DNA from: Negativicutes bacterium
GTDB lineage: Bacteria; Bacillota; Negativicutes; UBA1444
Assembly (NCBI GenBank): GCA_963665275.2
Contig: CAXXIN010000016.1
Location: forward strand, 268,395 to 332,394
Direction of reading: 5' to 3'
Length of the DNA: 64,000 nucleotides
Each line of letters starts with the position of its first letter. Position 1 is the stretch's first letter. Shown in pieces: positions 2 through 62,380 of the stretch. The notes under the pieces are model-generated. The model saw only the letters and a program-made list of their open reading frames with translations, did not search any database and was not told the DNA's origin. A program made the translations under genes and the position numbers.

Positions 2-151
2 GAAGCGGGCAGGGCCGCAGATACCGCCACTGGGGGCAAGAGTCTGTGGTCGTACAGCGGCTTGCCCTTTTCCAGCTCCAGTATTATCCTTGGGCTTATT
101 ATCTGGCAAATTGGGTTTTATCATTTTTCGATAAAACGAATGATGAAATGA
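2..151 (+). CDS. 3' end of a gene entering from the left, with a C-terminal hydrophobic segment (partial)
   Basis: Open frame from the window start to TGA at 149-151 (...SSIILGLIIWQIGFYHFSIKRMMK*), convergent with the TMEM165 gene. Confidence 0.4.
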   Translation, partial: EAGRAADTATGGKSLWSYSGLPFSSSSIILGLIIWQIGFYHFSIKRMMK

Positions 152-154
152 CGA

Positions 155-844
155 TTATTGCTTTTCACTCTGTTCTGCAGGGCAAGTTTGCTCCATGATC
201 GGCGGGGTGGAATTGCGGGCTGCCAGCCACATGGAAACAGCCAGGATGAGCAGACTGCCGATGACGATAGGCAGAGTCCAGAAGGCGGACGGTACGTATT
301 CATAGAGTCCCAATATACCAAAACAGATGAATAAAATGGCGGCGCCCCACTTCATCGTACGCTCGGGGATCTTTTTACCCAACACGATACCGAATATGAT
401 CCCTAGCCCGTCGGCGACCATCATGCCTGCGGTTGTTCCGAGCCAGACCGGGAGAATGGTATTGAATTTTGCCGCTAAAGCGATGGTCGCAAGCTGGGTT
501 TTATCCCCCATTTCCGCAATGAAAAAGGCAATGGCAACCGTCCAGAACGGGTTGAATTTGTCTTTTTCCGCTTCGTCACCCAGTTCATCGCCACGAATGG
601 TCCAGATTCCAAAAGCGATGAAGGAAATGGCTGCGCCGATTTGAATGTATGATAACGGAATAAATGCGGTCAGATAGTTGCCGACGAGGACGGCGAACAG
701 ATGATTCAGCACGGTAGCGACAAATACGCCCCACATGACGGTTTGCCAGCGAAAGCGGCAGGCGAAAGCCATGGCGAGAAGCTGGGTTTTGTCGCCCATT
801 TCGGCGAGTACGACAAAGGCAAGGGATGTCAGAAATGCGGTCAT
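155..844 (-). CDS. TMEM165/GDT1 (UPF0016) family putative Mn2+/Ca2+ transporter
   Basis: Two copies of AEMGDKTQL; AGGAGG RBS before ATG at 844 (the ORF track extends the start into the riboswitch). Confidence 0.93.
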   Translation of the reverse strand: MTAFLTSLAFVVLAEMGDKTQLLAMAFACRFRWQTVMWGVFVATVLNHLFAVLVGNYLTAFIPLSYIQIGAAISFIAFGIWTIRGDELGDEAEKDKFNPFWTVAIAFFIAEMGDKTQLATIALAAKFNTILPVWLGTTAGMMVADGLGIIFGIVLGKKIPERTMKWGAAILFICFGILGLYEYVPSAFWTLPIVIGSLLILAVSMWLAARNSTPPIMEQTCPAEQSEKQ

Positions 845-52870: not shown

Positions 52871-53542
52871 ATGTATTACTTTGAGTTGTTTCAGGAATGT
52901 CTGCCCAGTTTACTCAGTGGCTTATATTTAACGATTGTGATGGCGGTCGCCTCGATATTTTTCGCGTTCCTGATCGGAGTGATCCTCGGACTCTTCAGTA
53001 TCAGCAGTAGCCAAACTTTGCGTTCCATTTCCACCGTCTATATTTATGCGGTGCGCGGGGTACCGCTAATGATTCTGGCCCTATTCCTGTACTTCGGGGT
53101 CAGTGCGATCCTGGGAATTCGATTTAACCCTGTGGTGGCGGCCATTATTTCTCTGACCATCAATGCCAGCGCTTATATGGCGGAAATTTTCCGTGGCGGC
53201 ATACAGGCGATAGATATCGGACAATCCGAAGCTGCCCGTAGTCTGGGCATGAGCTATTTGAAAACCATGCACAAGGTGATCCTGCCACAGGCGATCAAAA
53301 TCATGATCCCGGCTTTTTTGAACCAATTCATTACCACACTCAAAGACACTTCCATTCTGTCGGTTATCAGCGTCAGGGAATTGACATTGAACGGACAGAT
53401 CATCATTGCCCGGAATTATTTGCCATTTGAGGTATATTCTTATGTGGCGGTGATGTATCTTGTCATTATCACAGGACTGTCATTACTCACCAAGAAGCTG
53501 GAAAGGAAGTTGAGTTATGATAATCACAGCAAACGACATTAG
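52871..53542 (+). CDS. Polar amino-acid ABC transporter permease
   Basis: RGVP, AYMAEIFRGGI, GQSEAARSLG, LKDTS. Confidence 0.93.
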   Translation: MYYFELFQECLPSLLSGLYLTIVMAVASIFFAFLIGVILGLFSISSSQTLRSISTVYIYAVRGVPLMILALFLYFGVSAILGIRFNPVVAAIISLTINASAYMAEIFRGGIQAIDIGQSEAARSLGMSYLKTMHKVILPQAIKIMIPAFLNQFITTLKDTSILSVISVRELTLNGQIIIARNYLPFEVYSYVAVMYLVIITGLSLLTKKLERKLSYDNHSKRH

Positions 53543-54255
53543 AAAAAGCTTCGGTCATCTGGAAGTGTTGAAGGGGATTTCTCTGGAAGTGACAGAAGGT
53601 GAGGTACTGTGCATTATTGGGCCCTCCGGGTCAGGTAAAAGCACACTGCTGCGCTGTCTGAACCGGCTGGAAGAGATACAGTCCGGCAGCATCACGGTGA
53701 TCGGTGAAAATATTGTAAATGCAAAAAACATCAACAAGCTGCGCGAAAAACATCGGCATGGTGTTCCAATCCTTTAATCTGTTTCCCAATTACACGGTGA
53801 TGCAGAATATGATGCTGGCGCCGCTGGAATTAAAGAAGATGAACCGCAAAGAAGCTGAAGAAACGGCAGTGGCCTTGCTGCGAAAGGTTGGCCTGGAGGA
53901 TAAAAAGGATGTCTATCCGCATACCCTGTCCGGGGGGCAGAAACAACGGGTGGCGATTGCCCGGGCGTTGCAGATGAATCCGAAGATCATGCTGTTCGAT
54001 GAACCGACCTCGGCTCTCGACCCTGAAATGGTGGGGGAAGTCCTGAAGGTCATGAAAGACTTGGCGCTGGAAGGGATGACGATGGTCATCGTTACGCACG
54101 AGATGGGGTTCGCCCGGGATGTGGCGGACCGGGTCATTTTCATGGACGATGGGTACATCGTCGAAGAAGGTACGGCCCAGGAACTGTTCACCGCCCCGAA
54201 AAGCAGCCGCTGCAATGATTTCCTGTCCAAGGTGCTCAGCGCACGGGCCAATTGA
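53517..54255 (+). CDS. Polar amino-acid ABC ATPase (GlnQ-like), frameshift in the A-run near 53748
   Basis: GPSGSGKST in one frame; [14 protein letters not shown] and [10 protein letters not shown] in another. Confidence 0.9.
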
Positions 54256-54456
54256 GTAGAAAGAGGGGAATTGTCAGTCGCCGACTTGGTAGTGTGAAGT
54301 TATTAGAAGAAGATAATTATAATTGAGGGCCGCGGCGGAATATTAATTTCAACGCGGCTTTTGCAATTTTATTATCGGGGCAGGAATGCGGCGGCTGTCG
54401 GCGAATGAGTAGAAGAGAAAATGGGAACTGGCACGGCCCTAAGGAGGATGCAGTCA

Positions 54457-55148
54457 TTGGATAGTGTGGCGGAACCGGTCAGTGGGAAAGAAGGCGCCCG
54501 GTTGGTTGTGGAGCAGGGAAGCCCATTCATTCAGGGGACCTTTTTTGATCTGAATAACGAAAAAACCATTATTGGACGGGTGACCGCTTCATTTCATCCG
54601 GATATTGGGTTCGATAGTTTGCTGATTTCCCGCCAACATTGCTGTATAGAGAGACAGGATCAGGCTTATCTGATTGCGGAGTTGGGCAGTAAGCATGGTA
54701 CGTTGGTGAACGGCAGGCGGCTCGATGCTTTCAGCCGGCTGGTTTTGGAGGATAATGACACAATTGATCTGGCCGATGGTGTGATTCGATTGCGCTTTTT
54801 GGTTTTGTTAGATTTGGATAATACCATGGATTGGGGGACTTTTCCGCCGGCAACGACCTTCATTGTGGACTTGGATAAAAGAGTGTTGCGCATTCACGAA
54901 ACAGAGATTCCACTAGCGGGTAAGGAATGGCGTTTGCTGGAAGTGCTGTACCACCATCGGAACAAACTGGTTCCGTATGAGATGATTCGCACCGAAGTCT
55001 GGTCCGAACGGCGTCTGATCGCAAGCGATATTCGGATGTCGGCATGGATGAAATCAATGTGTTGCTGCATCGTCTACGCTGCAAACTTGGCGTGTATGGG
55101 AAATTCCTGGTAACTCGCCGCGGGCAGGGCTACATTTTGGAAGTATAA
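54457..55148 (+). CDS. FHA-domain plus OmpR-type winged-helix regulator, frameshift near 55030
   Basis: FHA motifs IGR, ISRQH, SKHGTLVNG; wHTH KEWRLL...EVW, continued in another frame as EINVLLHRLRCKLG...TRRGQGYILEV*. Confidence 0.82.
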
Positions 55149-55152
55149 CTTT

Positions 55153-55211
55153 ATTTGTAATGGATTTATAAGGAAGCCGCAATTTTTTTCACCTCCGTGT
55201 TTTTCTATAAT
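55153..55211 (+). promoter_or_regulatory. 11-bp direct repeat and -10 box upstream of the beta-lactamase gene
   Basis: ATTTGTAATGG ATTTATAAGGA; TATAAT at 55206-55211 with no good -35. Confidence 0.45.
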
Positions 55212-55243
55212 GGAGACGTACCTAAACGGAAGGAGTGGAAGAA

Positions 55244-56043
55244 ATGAGGAAGTTTCTGATGGCGTTACTGATAATGGGGGCGATCCAGTGGTCGACCATG
55301 GCTGGAGCGACTGCAGCGACGGTGATCCGAGAGGATTTCAGCCGCTACTTTGACGGGTTGACGGCACGTTTGTCTTATATGAGCCTGCTACGGATACCTA
55401 TAGAATTTATAACGAAGAGCAGAGTAACAAAAGATTGTCACCCTGCTCAAGCTTTAAGATTTTCAATTCATTGATCGGACTGGAAACAGGGGTTCTTGAC
55501 CGGAACGACACGTTGACCATGATGCCATGGGATGGAACTCACTATGATATTGCCGGATGGAATCGTGATCATACGCTTGCTTCGGCTACACGGGAATCGG
55601 TGGTGTGGTATTTTCAAGCACTTGCGAGGCGTATCGGGGCGGAGAGGATGCAGCTTTATCTGGACCGGATCGGCTATGGAAACCGGGATATTTCCGGCGG
55701 ACTAACGCGGTTTTGGCTGCGCTCCTCCTTGCAAATTTCTGCTATGGAGCAAGTTGATGTGCTGAAGAGGCTGTATGCCGGAGAATTGCCGTTTTCTGCG
55801 GAGTCGCGGGCGATTGTTCTGCAAAACATCACGCTAGCCAATGAAAATGGAATCAAGTTCATGGGCAAGACCGGATCCGGGTATCAGGATGGAAAATGGA
55901 TTTTTGGCTGGTTTGTCGGCTACATTGAAACACAGGGAAAAGTTTATGTCTTTGCAACAAATGTGGAAGGCGCAGATGAAGCGAGCGGCATCAAAGCGCG
56001 CGAGATCACGCGGCGGATTGCTAAAGAGCTGGGGTTGTTGTGA
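55244..56043 (+). CDS. blaOXA: Class D beta-lactamase-like penicillin-binding protein, frameshift near 55358
   Basis: Signal peptide; PCSSFK (SxxK), SVVW (SxV), YGN, FWL, KTG, GWFVG. Confidence 0.82.
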
Positions 56044-56063
56044 AACAAAAGAGAGGAGAACCG

Positions 56064-57194
56064 ATGATGACTAAAATTAATGTGGGGATTTTGTTTGGCG
56101 GGAAATCGACGGAGCATGAGGTTTCGTTGCAATCCGCCAAGAATGTTTTGGATGCGATTGATCGCGAAAAGTACAACGTAACGTTGATCGGGATCGATAA
56201 AGGAGGTCGCTGGTATCTGAATGACCAGTCTCACTTTCTACTGAACAGCCATGACCCCAAACGGATTGCTTTGAATAAAGGCGATAAAGATGTGGTGCTG
56301 GTTCCTGGTGACGAGAGCCGGGAACTATTGTGTTTGGGCGGCGGCTACGCCGGCGGCAAATTGGATGTTATTTTCCCCGTATTGCACGGGGCGTTCGGCG
56401 AAGACGGTACGATGCAGGGGTTGCTGAAGCTGGTGGATATTCCGTTTGTAGGCGCAGGCGTTCTGGGGTCGGCGGTCGCCATGGATAAGGGACGTCGCCA
56501 AGCGGCTGCTCAGGGATGCGGGAGTGCCGATTGCGAAGTTTCAGGTTTTTCAACGTTGGGAGCGGGAGAAAATCAATTTTCAGGCAATCGTACGGGATTT
56601 GGGCTTGCCGTTGTTTATCAAACCGGCCAACGCCGGTTCGTCGGTCGGGGTGAGCAAGGTGGAAAATGAAGCGCAGTTTGCAGTGGCAATCGATGAAGCC
56701 TTTTCGTTTGATCGCAAAATTTTGATTGAAGAGTGCATGGTTGGGCGGGAAGTGGAATGCGCAGTTTTGGGGAATGAGCGGCCGATTGCTTCGGCAGTGG
56801 GTGAAATCATTGCGCAACAGGACTTTTATTCCTATGAGGGGGGGGGGGGGGGGGGGGGGGGGCCAAGTATATCGATGAAAACGGTGCGCTGTTGAAAATC
56901 CCGGCGGAGTTGTCCGGGGAAGCGATCGCATCAATTCAGGAACAGGCGATCAAGGCATATCAGGTTCTATGCTGTGAAGGGATGGCCCGGGTGGACTTTT
57001 TCCTCACACCGGATAATGTGGCTGTGGTCAATGAGATCAATACGATCCCCGGTTTTACCAAGATCAGCATGTATCCGAAGTTGTGGGAGATCAGCGGAAT
57101 ATCTTATCCGGAACTGATTGACCGTCTAATTCAATTGGCATTGGAACGGCATAACGAGGAACTGAAATTGCAAACCTCTTATGAAAAAAGCTGA
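56064..57194 (+). CDS. ddl: D-alanine--D-alanine ligase (DdlA-type), frameshifts near 56490 and at the G-run 56838-56862
   Basis: [35 protein letters not shown](AKY), [20 protein letters not shown]. Confidence 0.9.
56838..56862 (+). repeat. G25 homopolymer inside ddl
   Basis: TATGA-(G)25-CCAAGTAT where GAG GCC AAG TAT is expected. Confidence 0.9.
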
Positions 57195-57221
57195 TTAAAA
57201 AAGATTGGAGATGGCTCGAAT

Positions 57222-58101
57222 TTGAAAAAGTTGTTATTGCTAGTGATGGTGTTGAGTTGGTGTCTTAATTCGGCGGCTTTCGCTGAACCGGCAATCGAAA
57301 AAGAGCGCGTGAAGGTGCCGTTGGAAACGGACGGGAAAGCGTATTTGCTTGATGCCATGATCTATAAACCGGAGGGCGCCGGCCCGTTCCCCGCAATGGT
57401 GATGACGCATGGCACTTCCCGCCTGGTCGCGGACAGGCTCAAGACGACGGCGGACACCTACTACGTGAGGCAAGCCGAAACGTTCGCCAAACTTGGCATG
57501 GCGGTGATTTTCGTAGTGCGTCGGGGCTTTGGCATTTCGGACGGCCCCTATAATGAAAGCTTTCAATATCCGAATGGCGCCCGCAACTATACGCGAGCGG
57601 GGCTGGAGGCGGCGAAGGACCTCGGCGCGGCGATCCGTTATTTCCAGGACAAGCCGTATGTTGATAAAAACCGGGTAGTTTTGCTGGGACAGTCGACTGG
57701 CGGACACAGTGTTACCGCTGCGGGTTCCTTGAATTTTCCCGGCGTGATCGGCGTGATCAATTTTGCCGGCGGCCGGGGCTCTTCGGCGCCTGATGTGGTC
57801 AGAGACGAAGCCAACCTGGTTGATTCCTACGGAACCTAACGGGAAGACCTTCCGTGTTCCGACTCTATGGTTGTATTCAGAGAATGATCACTACTTCCGG
57901 CCGGCACTGGCGCAGCAATTTTTGGCGGCATTCCAGGCCGGTGGAGGCGCAGTGGAATTTGTCGCCCTGCCACCTTACGGAGAGGATGGGCACTCAAGTT
58001 TCGTGAGGGCCAAAAATAATTGGTATGCGCCGGTGGTGGACTTCCTGAAAAAACTCGGCGCTGTCGCCGAAACGGGCGCTTCTTTGGGCAGGGCTGCATA
58101 A
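57222..58101 (+). CDS. Exported dienelactone-hydrolase-type alpha/beta hydrolase, frameshift near 57836
   Basis: Signal peptide, GPFP..V.THG, RRGFG.SDG, GQSTGG nucleophile, SENDH, EDGH. Confidence 0.82.
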
Positions 58102-58106
58102 GGGGC

Positions 58107-58719
58107 TTATATTGTCTTGCGGGCGGCCAGCGCCCACAGATAGAGGGAAGCGACTGATCCGTAGGGTGAATAGCGTTTCCGATAGCGCTCGAACTGAGTT
58201 CGGGTCAGTTTGTTCAGACCATACAGGCTCATCATGCCCCGCCGGATGGCGAGGTCGCCCCAACTGACGACATCCGGCCGCTCGAGCGAAAAGATCAGCA
58301 GCATCTCGGCGGTCCAGACCCCAACACCGTTCAGGGCGGATAGCCGCTCAATGATCTCGTTGTCAGACAGAACAGGAAATTCGTGTATATTGAGTTCGTT
58401 TTGCAGTGCGGCCTCACCGACTCCCTTGATATAGAGGGTTTTACGCATAGAGAGGCCGCATTGCTGTATCTCGGCGGCATCGGCACGGGCGATGCCTGCG
58501 CGGCGTGATCCCGCCGCACTGCAACTGCAGGCGGCCCCAGACCGTAGCGGCAGCTTTGGTGGCGATCTGCTGGCCGACGATGCTGTGGATGAGGGCGGCG
58601 AAATGGTCGGGCATGACTTCCCGTTCAATTGGACCGATGCTCTCAATAGCCAGCGCCAGTTTTTTATCTTTTTTCTTCAGATGTTCGATCTCTGTCGATC
58701 CATAGTTAAAGAATGGCAC
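58107..58719 (-). CDS. alkA: DNA-3-methyladenine glycosylase II (HhH-GPD), frameshift near 58500
   Basis: SIVGQQI, GVGVWTAEMLLIF, GDLAIR, SPYGSVASLYLW; GTG start with GGAGG RBS. Confidence 0.85.
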
Positions 58720-59298
58720 GGGTCGCCTCCGTTGCTGCGGATTTTGCCAGCGATTTCTGTTGCCGGTATTCGCTGGGTGTGATGCCGAACTTCTTTTGAA
58801 ACAGGCGTAAAAACTCGATAAACTGCCGAATCCACTGACCAGTGCGACGTTCAACACAGGCATGTCGGGGATGGCCAGGCAAGCCTCGGCATTCGCCAAA
58901 CGCAACCGGTTCTGGTATTCGGTAGGCGTCATGCCATATTCCTGCTGGAACAGCCGCGTCAAGTGGTGAGGACTGACGGGGATATGTTTCAACTGCGCCG
59001 CGAGTTTTTCGCGGTCCGAATAATCCGTGTCGTAAATCGCCTTGATTTTCGAGAGCAGTTCCCGCGTCGGGGCATAATCCAGCAGATCGGGACGACAGCG
59101 TTTGCAGGGACGCATGCCGAACGCGAAAGCACCGGCCGCTTCGTCAAAGAACTCGACATTCTCCCGCAGAGGAGTTTTGGACTTACAGGACGGCCGGCAG
59201 AAAATGCCGGTCGTTTTCACGCCATAGAAAAACTGTCCATCATAGGTTGGATCACAATGAACAACGGCATCCCATTTTTCGGTGTCCGTTAGCGTCAT
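58706..59298 (-). CDS. adaA: AdaA-type methylphosphotriester methyltransferase / AraC regulator, frameshift near 58795
   Basis: GVKTTGIFCRPSC, RPCKRC, AraC HTH; the natural end FKKKFGITPSEYR...* needs one added A. Confidence 0.87.
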
Positions 59299-59774
59299 GA
59301 GTTATGCACGCTCCCTTGTTTTTCGAGAGCCAACAGCTGCTCTTTGGCACTCAGGCCGCCCCGGTAGCCGACCAGCTTCCGATTGGAACCGATGACCCGA
59401 TGACAGGGAATGAAGAGCGGCAGAGGGTTTTTATTGTTGGCGAGACCGACAGCGCGGGCTGCATCAGGATTGCCGAGGGAAGAGGCGACTTCGCGGTAAC
59501 TGCGGGTTTCTCCATAAGGAATGGCGCATAGCGCATCCCAGACCCGCCGCATGTATTCAGTACCGACTGGCGCGAGGGGAAGGTTGAACTCTCGGAGTTG
59601 CCCGGCGAAATAGAGCTGCAGCTGATGCCCCGCTTCCTTCAGCAATTTCGTTTCCTGCATGAGCGCTTCCGTCGGGACAGGTTCGCCTTCAAAGAACAGA
59701 TGGGTAACGGTCTTGTTGTTTTCGACGATTCCGAGAGAACCGATGGGGGTCTGATAAAAAAAGAGCGATTTCAT
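59295..59774 (-). CDS. ogt: Methylated-DNA--protein-cysteine methyltransferase
   Basis: IPYGET.SY, ARAVG, IPCHRV, GYRGG. Confidence 0.94.
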   Translation of the reverse strand: MKSLFFYQTPIGSLGIVENNKTVTHLFFEGEPVPTEALMQETKLLKEAGHQLQLYFAGQLREFNLPLAPVGTEYMRRVWDALCAIPYGETRSYREVASSLGNPDAARAVGLANNKNPLPLFIPCHRVIGSNRKLVGYRGGLSAKEQLLALEKQGSVHNS

Positions 59775-60258
59775 TTTTTGCGTTTTCTCCCCTCTATCTG
59801 ATATCTGATTTGGTGGCACGAAGATTTCGCACTCTCAGTTTATCAAAAGGGTAAGAAGCTGTCGTGCTGTTTTTTGACACGAAATTCGTGAGTCGGCGTT
59901 GATGGGAATTTGTTCTGGGCGTTGGCAGAAGAAGAACTGCCGCACTGTTGGGTGAGAAGGAGACCACGTTTGGGATAATGTTGCAAAAATATTGCATATA
60001 TGTTCAAAAAATATATAATTTAGTAGCCTATGAATTGGGGTGTTGCAAGTGAGGGTATACATTTGAAACAAGAGGAGTTTAAGCTATCTCGAGTTAAGGG
60101 GTTTTGTGTGATGAACATGAACTCATTGGATTTTGAAAAATGAATGATTTTAAATGTTTTTAACAGATATAAGCGGATGAAGTGCTTTGATTTAAGATGG
60201 ACACACCTGCGCTGCGAAACGTGCGAGAAAGTACTATTAGGAAAGAGGAGAGAGGTCT

Positions 60259-62380
60259 TTGATGGGGAGCGATCAAGAGGCGCGAGAAACAGTCAATCGT
60301 ATCAAAGCTGAGTTTGCTGACCTTAGTCAGGAGCTGGTGCGAAAAAATGAGTTGCTTGAACGGCAAAATTTTGAATTAAAGAGCGAAGTTGCATTTCGAA
60401 TAGAGGCGGAGAAAACGTTGCGGGAGAGCCAGTCTATCTATGTTGCATTGACGCAGAATTCAACAGATGGCATCATCCTTCGTGACGATGCCGGAATCAT
60501 TACATATGTAAATTGTGTTTTTGCCAAAATGATACAAGCGGATGAGCCATCGGAACTGTTGGGCCATTTGTATATGGACTATGTGCATCCCGATGACCGC
60601 GAAGAATATCTTCGTCGTTTTGCGTCAGTCACCTCCGGGATTCAGGCGCCCAAGTGGGAACATCGGTTGATGGGTTTTCAAGGTAGAGTCATCTATGTGG
60701 AATCGACCAGCGTACCAATTTCCGCAGACGGTCGTTTTATTAGCATGAGCATTTTTCAGGATATTACCGACCGCAAACGTGCTACACAGTTGGAGAAGGA
60801 AAAAGGGGAGCTTTTGCGCACACTAATCGAAACGATCCCCGACATGGTTTGGCTGAAAAATCCGGAGGGTGTTTACCTAAGCTGTAACAGGATGTTTGAG
60901 AGGTTCTTCGGGGCCTGCGAAGGCGACATCGTTGGAAAAACCGACTATGATTTTGTAGAGGCCGAGTTGGCGGGTTTCTTTCGGGAAAACGACCGAAAAG
61001 CCATAGCGACGGGTAAGTCCGTCATTAATGAAGAGGAAGTCTCGCTTGCCGAGGATGGGCGTCACATGAATTTGGAAACAATCAAAACGCCCATGTTCGC
61101 TGCAGGCGGGACACTCATCGGCGTGCTGGGCGTAGCTCGTGACATCACCGGGCATAAACGGATGGAAGAAGCATTGCGGAAAAGTGAAGCCAGATTCAGA
61201 CAGCTTGTCACAACACTCCCTCTTCCATTGGCTATTATCAATAATGAAGGAATGCATACTTTTATTAATGATAAGTTTGTGCAGGTTTTTGGATACAACT
61301 ACGATGACTTGCCATCACGAGAAAAATGGCGGGAATTAGCTTTTCCCGATCAGAATTACAGGAGCCTGGTGGCGGAGACCTGGGCCGCAGAGGTTGAGAG
61401 TGCGACGAAAGCAAAGCAAGAGATCGGACCGATTGAATACGATATCACCTGCAAAAACGGAGCGGTGCGTTCTGTAATGGTTTCCGGCATCGTTACAAGT
61501 GATGAAGTGCTCGCGACCTTTATCGATATAACGGACCGTCGTCGGCATGAACAAACGATGAAAGCTTCCTACGAACGACGAAGAATAAATGAGCTGATGA
61601 TATAAACTGATTCGGCAAGGCCCGTCTTCCAATCATACGGTATATGAAAGCGCCCGCATCATGGGCGCCAATATGATGATGCCATTCAGTTGCTTTCTGA
61701 TTATGATCGATGAATATCAGGAAAAGCCAAGAGCCTATTGGCAGGATCATTTGAATGAATATCGACTGTTAACGGATTCCCTGCTGGATGCATTGGAAGA
61801 GGCCAATAGGGTTTCGTGGGAAGGGTCCGAGGGGATTGGTTTGCTATGCTTTGAGCCGGGTGACTCTGAAATCACCAAAGACGCTCAAAAAAGCATGGCG
61901 GAAGAATTGCGTACTAAAATTGCCGGGAAGGTTCCGGCGGTCACGGTTTCCATCGGTATCGCCGAATTCGGCGCCAATATTGCGGACATACGGACCTATT
62001 ACCGGCAGGCGGAGAGCGCCGTCGGCGCTGGCCGCAAAGTGTGGCCGCAATTGAAGACGTATCATTATTTGGACATGGGCGTTTTTCAGCTGCTGTCGTG
62101 CTTTACCGATGAAGTTCAAATCACGGCATACATTGAACGCACTTTGGGAAAGTTGTTAACTTATGATAAGAAAAAGGGCGGCGCCTATCTGGCTACCCTG
62201 GAGATCATTCTAATGAGCGACAATCTCAAAGACGGTGCGGATAAACTATCTATCCACTATCAAACCATGATGTTCCGCAAGCGGCGGTTAGAGACAATCC
62301 TCGGTATTTCCTTCGATGATTTTCAATCGCGACTGACAATATCGACTGCTTTGCAAATGTTGAAACTTCGCAAACCCTAA
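60259..62380 (+). CDS. Multi-PAS sensor fused to a CdaR/PucR-type C-terminal regulator, frameshift near 61600
   Basis: Three PAS/PAC repeats in 60259-61605; VSIGI, YLDMGVFQLL, TLE and LSIHYQTMMFRKRRLE PucR HTH in 61661-62380. Confidence 0.8.

Follow-up and report, generated by a model that had tools for sequence, protein, structure and literature searches.

The DNA considered here is a stretch of 64,000 nucleotides from a Negativicutes bacterium of the GTDB lineage UBA1444 (GenBank assembly GCA_963665275.2, contig CAXXIN010000016.1, positions 268,395 to 332,394), hereafter called the window. Between 54.4 and 58.1 kb its plus strand carries four successive genes: a transcriptional regulator in which an FHA domain is joined to a winged helix, a class D (OXA-like) β-lactamase-like gene, a ddl gene for D-alanine–D-alanine ligase, and an α/β hydrolase gene (Table 1). 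The limits given to this group in a preliminary description, which was made from the sequence alone, correspond to a TTG codon 9 nt past an AAGGAGG motif and to the stop codon of the hydrolase gene. Because the gaps are only 20 nt (class D gene to ddl) and 27 nt (ddl to hydrolase gene), the transcript of the class D gene most likely also carries ddl and the hydrolase gene in the organism itself.

Table 1. Features of the locus in window coordinates, except for the regulator domains, which are given as residues of the orthologue G006
Feature	Position	Strand	Details
Regulator gene, FHA-winged-helix (OmpR/PhoB type)	54457..55148	+	TTG start; ribosome-binding site AAGGAGG at 54441-54447; 230 aa without the assembly error
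Regulator domains	FHA ~15-117; linker ~120-132; winged helix ~135-230		disordered linker contains the threonine
Operator	55155..55189	+	three 11-bp-phased direct repeats TTGTAAT/TTATAAG/CGCAATT, then a T-tract; 6 nt past the regulator stop
-10 hexamer TATAAT of the β-lactamase promoter	55206..55211	+	no good -35; ATG at 55244
Secreted class D (OXA-like) β-lactamase-like gene	55244..56043	+	266 aa from ATG 55244; signal peptide; SSFK, SVV, YGN, FWL, KTG
Accessory D-alanine–D-alanine ligase gene (DdlA type)	56064..57194	+	368 aa
Secreted α/β hydrolase gene	57222..58101	+	292 aa; signal peptide; GQSTGG nucleophile elbow
Single-base indels, window versus public contigs	53746, 55032, 55361, 56489, 57838, 58495, 58793

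As the window is written, each gene from 53.5 to 59.3 kb is frameshifted, which would favor reading the locus as a decayed remnant of four pseudogenes. The breaks nevertheless strike unrelated genes on both strands, and contigs from three public sequencing runs in two studies (X21 from one, X22 and X23 from the other) cover positions 53400 to 59400 with no substitutions relative to the window while differing from it by seven single-base indels and the length of one G-run, 30 gap letters in total. The public contigs are one base longer after 55032 (in the regulator gene) and after 55361 (in the class D gene), and the window has one base too many at 56489 (ddl) and at 57838 (hydrolase gene). The G-run, at 56838-56862 in ddl, counts 25 G in the window, 23 more than in the public contigs; it is one of only two homopolymers of at least 12 bases in the 4-Mb assembly and is an assembly artefact, as the other, a run of 22 C (C7:97290-97311), probably is too. 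Although the three runs may include the source sample of the assembly, a separate wastewater metagenome run (X1) shows the indels at 55361, 56489 and 58793, where it has coverage. All four genes are open on a metagenome contig of 94% identical DNA (L131), with a class D protein of 269 aa, a hydrolase of 292 aa and a ligase of 376 aa counted from the first start codon, and 13 protein letters stand there at the site of the window's G-run. Since contigs without a single substitution differ at the indels and the G-run, and since L131 is intact, the frameshifts are assembly errors and the organism's genes are intact; the contig is rich in errors at this end, 7 indels lying within 6 kb. A pseudogene locus is thus scarcely credible, and is already refuted unless the public contigs come from another strain than the assembly. 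Protein analyses were performed on intact natural orthologues, namely G006, L131 and P0004, the last of which (230 aa) aligns as a near-identical, intact form of the window regulator.

A conserved gene pair and its operator

A regulator profile searched against 401 Negativicutes genomes from 110 genera detected the gene in 42 genomes of 17 genera, once per genome except in G063, where it lies in two adjacent pieces. From these, 40 loci were retrieved with ~7 kb on either side, and in 28 of them a class D-like gene directly adjoins the regulator on the same strand, the regulator coming first in 13 and the class D gene in 15. Two further genomes were added to the 28, the window's own (G000) and one with a regulator fragment (G148; fragment at C353:1-282, class D gene at 421-1218), so that the 42 regulator-bearing genomes divide into 30 linked, 11 unlinked and 1 that ends at a contig edge and is not assessable. 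The linked genomes belong to 7 families, and the other genes flanking the pair vary by lineage (arginase, NUDIX, HD, DAHP synthase and MFS genes among them). Class D-like genes as such are present in 77 of the 401 genomes.

The pair was also found in Caldalkalibacillus mannanilyticus (Bacilli); it is not present in Brevibacillus fluminis. A search for relatives with a 10-row subset of the alignment returned 5 full-length regulators in genome contigs and 8 in metagenome contigs, and in the latter a class D gene stands beside the regulator in 6 of the 8, which are all 6 that can be assessed, the remaining two contigs ending just past the operator. Publicly named homologues come from Anaeroselena and Sporomusa, and the pair is found in many anaerobic soil and wastewater bacteria.

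The preliminary description had placed the regulator at the head of an operon of class D, ddl and hydrolase genes and had proposed a synteny survey of such regulators. The four genes are all there in the window, and the survey found the linkage to the class D gene conserved (30 of 42 genomes), but that pair is all of the proposed operon that it retains. None of the 40 loci has ddl, which recurs, intact, in L131 only; the hydrolase gene occurs in one of the 40 (G006, with a GDPD gene in place of ddl) and on two metagenome contigs of the same lineage, its homologues being confined to L013, L129 and L131. The conserved unit is therefore the regulator, the operator and the class D gene, with ddl and the hydrolase gene as local additions, passengers that are restricted to particular lineages.

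A tree of 43 regulators, from which a split gene (L100) and one at a contig edge (L080) were omitted, contains three well-supported clades linked to class D genes. The labels for gene arrangement are clustered on this tree, requiring 7 changes compared with 20.7 in shuffles, and two families (f25 and f32) occur in both arrangement types, so the cassette is not simply following host phylogeny. Because the regulator tree does not run along host families, the two-gene cassette appears to move between lineages.

The direct repeat between the two genes, which the preliminary description had noted together with a −10 box, is imperfect when the window is taken by itself (TTGTAAT at 55155, TTATAAG at 55166), and a repeat search of the window did not report the pair. 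The −10 hexamer is present as described, although a consensus promoter scan did not call this promoter because its −35 element is poor. It is the comparison across loci that turns the weak repeat into a conserved operator: in both gene orders, three direct repeats of the form TGT(A/C)A, phased by 11 bp, lie ~90 nt upstream of the class D start, as in TGTAA/TGTAA/GCTAT, GTTAG/GTTAG/GTTAT, TATCA/TATCA/CGTCA and TGTCA/AATCA/TGTCA. Behind the block come a T-tract and, after another ~15-22 nt, a TAnAAT hexamer whose offset is shared by other loci, and the third unit of the operator falls at the position expected for the −35 element.

We built a 35-nt position weight matrix (PWM) from the sites of linked loci, in most of which the best site lies 86-109 nt before the class D start, with 220 nt open to choice. 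The window site, which was within the training set, scores 41.3 bits and is the sole site of at least 20 bits in 7.9 million positions of its own genome, where the next best scores 18.3. Held-out sites scored 32.0 bits (Caldalkalibacillus, L022), 25.4 (L095/L096), 25.4 (L132), 37.3 (L133) and 24.1 (L134), and all of these lie before a class D gene or directly behind the regulator. No site of at least 20 bits was detected at 8 unlinked class D loci in regulator-bearing genomes, at 12 class D loci of genomes that lack the regulator, or in 13 loci with the regulator only, among them L080 (contig edge) and L021 (Bacilli); the highest score over all these loci was 18.1 bits.

Regulators without an adjacent class D gene have neighbors of other kinds. 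Three adjoin SbmA/BacA-type ABC transporters (L079, L087 and L091), one a MacB-type (MacB/FtsX) ABC pump (L097) and two an MBL-fold protein, a hydrolase (L015 and L076), for all of which antibiotic or envelope functions are plausible. In family f12 (L017:6200-6515, L085 and L086), four 11-bp-phased TGTAA/TGTCA repeats and a TATAAT hexamer precede a ~52-codon open reading frame (ORF) for a small hydrophobic protein, which is followed by the regulator; here the regulator seems to control the small membrane peptide and itself, and not a class D gene.

Domains of the regulator and motifs of the class D protein

The window regulator matches the Pfam FHA family (PF00498) with 54.2 bits, well over the cut-off of 20.7, and five orthologues score 50-64 bits. 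Its match to Trans_reg_C (PF00486) comes in two pieces of 24.7 and 20.1 bits, both of which fall below the cut-off of 26.2 only because the assembly error cuts the gene in two; intact orthologues reach 40.9-48.6 bits, the lowest of these being the orthologue from the same genus. Neither a receiver domain (Response_reg) nor a BTAD domain was matched by Pfam in the window regulator or in the orthologues, and no histidine kinase is present among the ORFs scanned between 47.9 and 64.0 kb. In these respects the preliminary description, which saw an OmpR-type DNA-binding domain joined to FHA instead of a receiver and no histidine kinase nearby, was correct.

An AlphaFold2 model calculated from an 18-row alignment has a mean predicted local distance difference test score (pLDDT) of 83, with a confident FHA sandwich (residues 15-117) and a confident winged helix (135-230, in which residues 135-228 form the strand-helix-helix-helix-hairpin succession) separated by a linker (120-132) that is disordered, with pLDDT below 50. 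By both sequence and fold, the nearest relatives of the FHA half are GarA (including its complex with PknB), OdhI, DgcB with its own phosphopeptide, FhaA and the FHA domain of EmbR, while those of the C-terminal half are PcoR, ArlR, SaeR and PhoB. No solved chain in the PDB comparison spans both halves. A homodimer structure prediction returned a score of 0.00, which counts neither for nor against dimerization. The family is small: among 1.84 billion cluster representatives, 141 proteins were matched at E<=1e-30.

Of the best 150 matches, 90 are full-length two-domain proteins of at most 300 aa, each representing a cluster at 50% identity. The FHA signature (G38, R39, S56, R57, H59, S76, G79, T80 and N83 in profile numbering), which we take to comprise the phosphothreonine contacts, is 88-100% conserved in the 90 representatives, and the corresponding residues GR...SR.H...GSKHGT.LN are invariant in the 18-sequence alignment. 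The linker is otherwise unconserved, yet a single threonine within it, in the motif [DE]-x-T-[LIMV]-[DE]-[LFIY], is aligned in 79 of the 90, and about seven of the other 11 carry the motif displaced by a few residues. Lying in a disordered stretch beside an FHA domain and followed at +3 by a hydrophobic residue, this threonine would fit a site that is phosphorylated by a kinase and then read by FHA.

The class D-like protein of the window matches PF00905 with 119.6 bits. Across 33 class D proteins of the module, S-x-F-K is present in 32 (the 33rd being a truncated ORF), S-V-V in 32 (the exception has T for the middle V), and Y-G-N, F-W-L and K-T-G in all 33; we take S-x-x-K, S-x-V, Y-G-N, the W of F-W-L and K-T-G to be the active-site motifs of class D enzymes. 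The N-terminus carries a cleavable signal peptide, which is lipobox-like in the clade of families f7 and f11 in which the class D gene comes first. The nearest solved relatives are class D enzymes of Gram-positive bacteria (BPU-1, BSU-2/YbxI, BAT-2 and CDD-1/2), at 195-206 bits with BAT-2 the closest at 206, followed by the MecR1/BlaR1 sensor domains at 180 bits. CDD enzymes are described as inducible in passages of PMC6299217. Hydrolytic activity of the window protein is likely but not assured.

Possible signal input and mode of control

The regulator resembles several known systems in part. EmbR of M. tuberculosis, the partner of PknH, likewise unites an OmpR-type winged helix and an FHA domain in one protein. 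According to passages of a review (PMC4601284), EmbR becomes active when a Hanks kinase phosphorylates it in an FHA-dependent manner, and the operon under its control concerns the cell envelope and drug tolerance. EmbR is, however, a SARP of 388 aa with an N-terminal winged helix, a central BTAD/TPR region and a C-terminal FHA domain, whereas in the ~230-aa regulator described here FHA precedes the winged helix, BTAD is absent, the hosts are Firmicutes and the target is a β-lactamase gene. The closest FHA folds, known by their entry titles, provide a precedent for self-recognition: in GarA and OdhI a phosphothreonine of the protein's own flexible segment docks on FHA in cis, and in DgcB it docks on that of the neighboring protomer. 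Their outputs are enzyme inhibition or a GGDEF cyclase, unlike the DNA binding of the regulator, in which the proposed phospho-site would lie in the interdomain linker. With the PhoB/OmpR response regulators it shares the DNA-binding domain and the 11-bp-phased layout of the operator, but it has neither a receiver domain nor a partner histidine kinase. PhoB/OmpR operators are 11-bp-phased direct repeats that replace the −35 element, and a good −10 with no −35 and phased direct repeats in its place is the layout of promoters that these proteins activate.

BlaR1-BlaI also governs β-lactamase genes in Firmicutes, and even does so for a class D gene in the same class: in G180 (L124, C1:2026800-2037600), BlaI, BlaR1 (609 aa, with Peptidase_M56), an S9/DLH-like hydrolase and a class D gene form an operon. 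That system differs in being a membrane sensor-protease with a repressor, both of which are missing from the window locus and from the 28 linked loci. Pfam searches found no Peptidase_M56 or Penicillinase_R at the window locus, and BlaR1/BlaI and VanRS are absent from beside the regulator–class D pair. In nine genomes, of which only G180 was examined by Pfam, ORFs of 602-618 aa terminate in a class D-like domain, and all nine lie outside the 42 genomes that carry the FHA regulator.

The window's own genome encodes three Hanks kinases, none of which lies near the window: a PASTA kinase on C18 and, at 144 and 150 kb of C16, two of the zinc-ribbon type. In G031 (L014:3859-9927), the regulator gene directly precedes genes for a zinc-ribbon FHA protein, a PP2C phosphatase, a trypsin-FHA protein, a second PP2C, a DUF5684 protein and a zinc-ribbon Ser/Thr kinase, and a similar kinase/PP2C cluster lies in the window's own genome at C16:138.5-145.7 kb, ~177 kb upstream of the window locus. 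Because the phosphothreonine-binding residues and the linker threonine motif are conserved, and because the G031 regulator abuts such a cluster, we infer that the regulator is wired to a Ser/Thr kinase. The preliminary description had proposed this wiring in preference to BlaR/BlaI or VanRS; the absence of both systems from beside the pair agrees with it, and the kinase reading itself is well motivated but unproven. The zinc-ribbon kinase was considered as a general partner and rejected, since of the 30 genomes with a linked class D gene only 2 carry this kinase type. PASTA kinases are near-universal and report cell-wall damage. The PASTA kinase is thus the candidate that is left by elimination, and one whose part in cell-wall stress is treated in passages of the same review (PMC4601284).

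We consider it somewhat probable that these parts form a module in which the FHA-winged-helix regulator, driven by a Ser/Thr kinase through its linker threonine, activates the class D gene from the repeat operator. In this module FHA would stand in for the receiver domain of a response regulator. A Hanks-type Ser/Thr kinase, most plausibly the PASTA kinase, would phosphorylate the linker threonine, and the phosphothreonine would be bound by the FHA domain of a second protomer or, alternatively, phosphorylation would release an intramolecular contact. The regulator would then oligomerize head-to-tail on the direct repeats, as PhoB-type proteins do after aspartate phosphorylation. As a cytoplasmic one-component regulator, it would bind the three 11-bp-phased TGT(A/C)A repeats upstream of and overlapping the −35 position and would activate the secreted class D β-lactamase gene, presumably inducible by β-lactams, from a promoter whose −10 is good and whose −35 is poor.

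Several observations weigh against this interpretation. The PWM was trained on linked loci, and only the held-out sites and the genome-wide uniqueness of the window site count as independent support for the operator; the relatives in the survey are likewise not independent of one another, and their counts overstate the statistical weight of the linkage. Eleven of the 42 regulator-bearing genomes have no adjacent class D gene, and some of these have one elsewhere without the operator. With respect to the input, the 28 loci with a class D gene contain no linked gene for a kinase or phosphatase, the zinc-ribbon kinase of the G031 type is present in just 19 of the 401 genomes (all 13 of family f1, together with G031, G032, G084, G094, G109 and G316), and the PASTA kinase was chosen by elimination. 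The missing linkage would also suit an FHA domain that serves for constitutive oligomerization or phospho-independent interaction, with the regulator answering another signal or acting as a constitutive activator; phospho-independent FHA contacts are known for GarA, going by the title of a reference in PMC4601284. Against such a role, the phosphothreonine-contacting residues are retained across 90 diverged representatives, and most of these keep a single threonine in an otherwise unconserved, disordered linker; we regard it as unlikely.

The regulator could instead be a repressor within the same module, occluding the −35 region until a signal removes it. The third repeat does sit on the −35 position, and BlaI, the classical β-lactamase regulator of Firmicutes, is a repressor, one copy of which adjoins the class D gene in G180. 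Yet the promoter has a near-consensus −10 and no usable −35, and the repeats run upstream and not over the −10 or +1, which is the established layout of PhoB/OmpR activation; repression therefore strikes us as distinctly improbable. As for the product of the class D gene, it might be a slow-turnover trap or sensor that binds β-lactams, like the BlaR1/MecR1 sensor or the low-activity YbxI of Bacillus, and not a resistance enzyme. Its best NCBIfam match is the sensor region of the BlaR1 model, where the window type reaches 286 bits, itself below that model's cut-off of 400; on the class D model, whose cut-off is 250, the G006 orthologue (of the window type) reaches 232 bits and the 202-aa piece from the window 214.6. 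These figures and the proximity of the MecR1/BlaR1 sensor domains in the PDB are again points against a straightforward resistance enzyme. Against a trap or sensor, the protein has a signal peptide only, with no membrane or protease domain to relay a signal, the subclade in which the class D gene comes first passes the class D cut-off (266.6 bits for the G022 type), and among solved structures the protein is closest to the Bacillus enzymes BAT-2, BSU-2 and BPU-1. We hold this alternative to be improbable too.

Kinase-driven activation of the class D gene, if it operates as proposed, would have wider consequences. Inducible β-lactamases are understood through a few sensor systems, to which a regulator devoted to reading Ser/Thr phosphorylation would add a new input and a third induction route in Firmicutes, beside BlaR1-BlaI and the sigma-factor and two-component routes. 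We would put somewhat less trust in this fuller scheme, in which the PASTA kinase senses wall damage and phosphorylates the linker threonine, FHA-mediated self-association follows and the class D gene is turned on, the whole cassette moving between lineages. It would connect a defined promoter with the part that PASTA kinases play in β-lactam tolerance, which has long been recognized but is vague in mechanism, and would provide a compact natural case of an OmpR/PhoB DNA-binding domain driven by phosphorylation of threonine and not of aspartate. What is new here is the application of an EmbR-like logic and a PhoB-like operator to the control of a β-lactamase; no FHA-winged-helix regulator of any β-lactamase was found in the literature searched, which did not cover subscription journals. 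A direct test is feasible, because the module is small (a regulator, an operator and a single enzyme gene), its operator occurs just once in the genome, and the carriers include culturable non-pathogens with complete genomes; one culturable, non-pathogenic carrier is Sporomusa acidovorans DSM 3132 (locus L020/L066).

Passenger genes and other neighbors

The Ddl protein of the window matches Dala_Dala_lig_N with 126.1 bits and Dala_Dala_lig_C with 115.5 and 105.4 bits. A Van-type ligase was considered and dropped, as the three pieces of the protein score best on the NCBIfam model NF002525 (201, 145 and 137 bits), above every Van model, and no VanH, VanX, VanR or VanS was found among the window neighbors; by these matches it is classed as an ordinary Ddl. 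It is a second copy, another Ddl domain being present in an 844-aa ORF on C4 (C4:137957-138559) that is possibly a fusion with a Mur ligase. The hydrolase has only weak Pfam matches (S33, 29.1 bits; S15, 26.8; S9, 26.1; and DLH) and weak NCBIfam matches, and no relation to the hydrolase of the G180 BlaR1 operon was detectable (phmmer, E<=1e-3).

The other genes around the locus are of mixed function, comprising those for a GGDEF protein, an M20 peptidase, an amino-acid ABC transporter, an Ada/AlkA/Ogt operon, a PAS/PucR regulator, a STAS protein and a chemoreceptor. The assembly errors at 53746, 58495 and 58793 break the ATPase gene of the amino-acid ABC transporter (53517-54255) and the Ada/AlkA gene (58107-59298, minus strand). 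The latter belongs to a methylation-damage repair operon at 58107-59819 on the minus strand, which encodes Ada (Zn-binding domain and AraC-type helix-turn-helix (HTH)), AlkA (HhH-GPD) and Ogt and is convergent with the hydrolase gene. Further downstream, at 60259-62380, a PAS ORF of 448 aa is followed after 55 nt by a PucR-type HTH ORF of 239 aa. At locus L091 one protein of 807 aa, which combines PAS, receiver-like and PucR HTH domains, is encoded beside the regulator, and in view of this counterpart the two ORFs of the window may be one gene split by a further assembly error.

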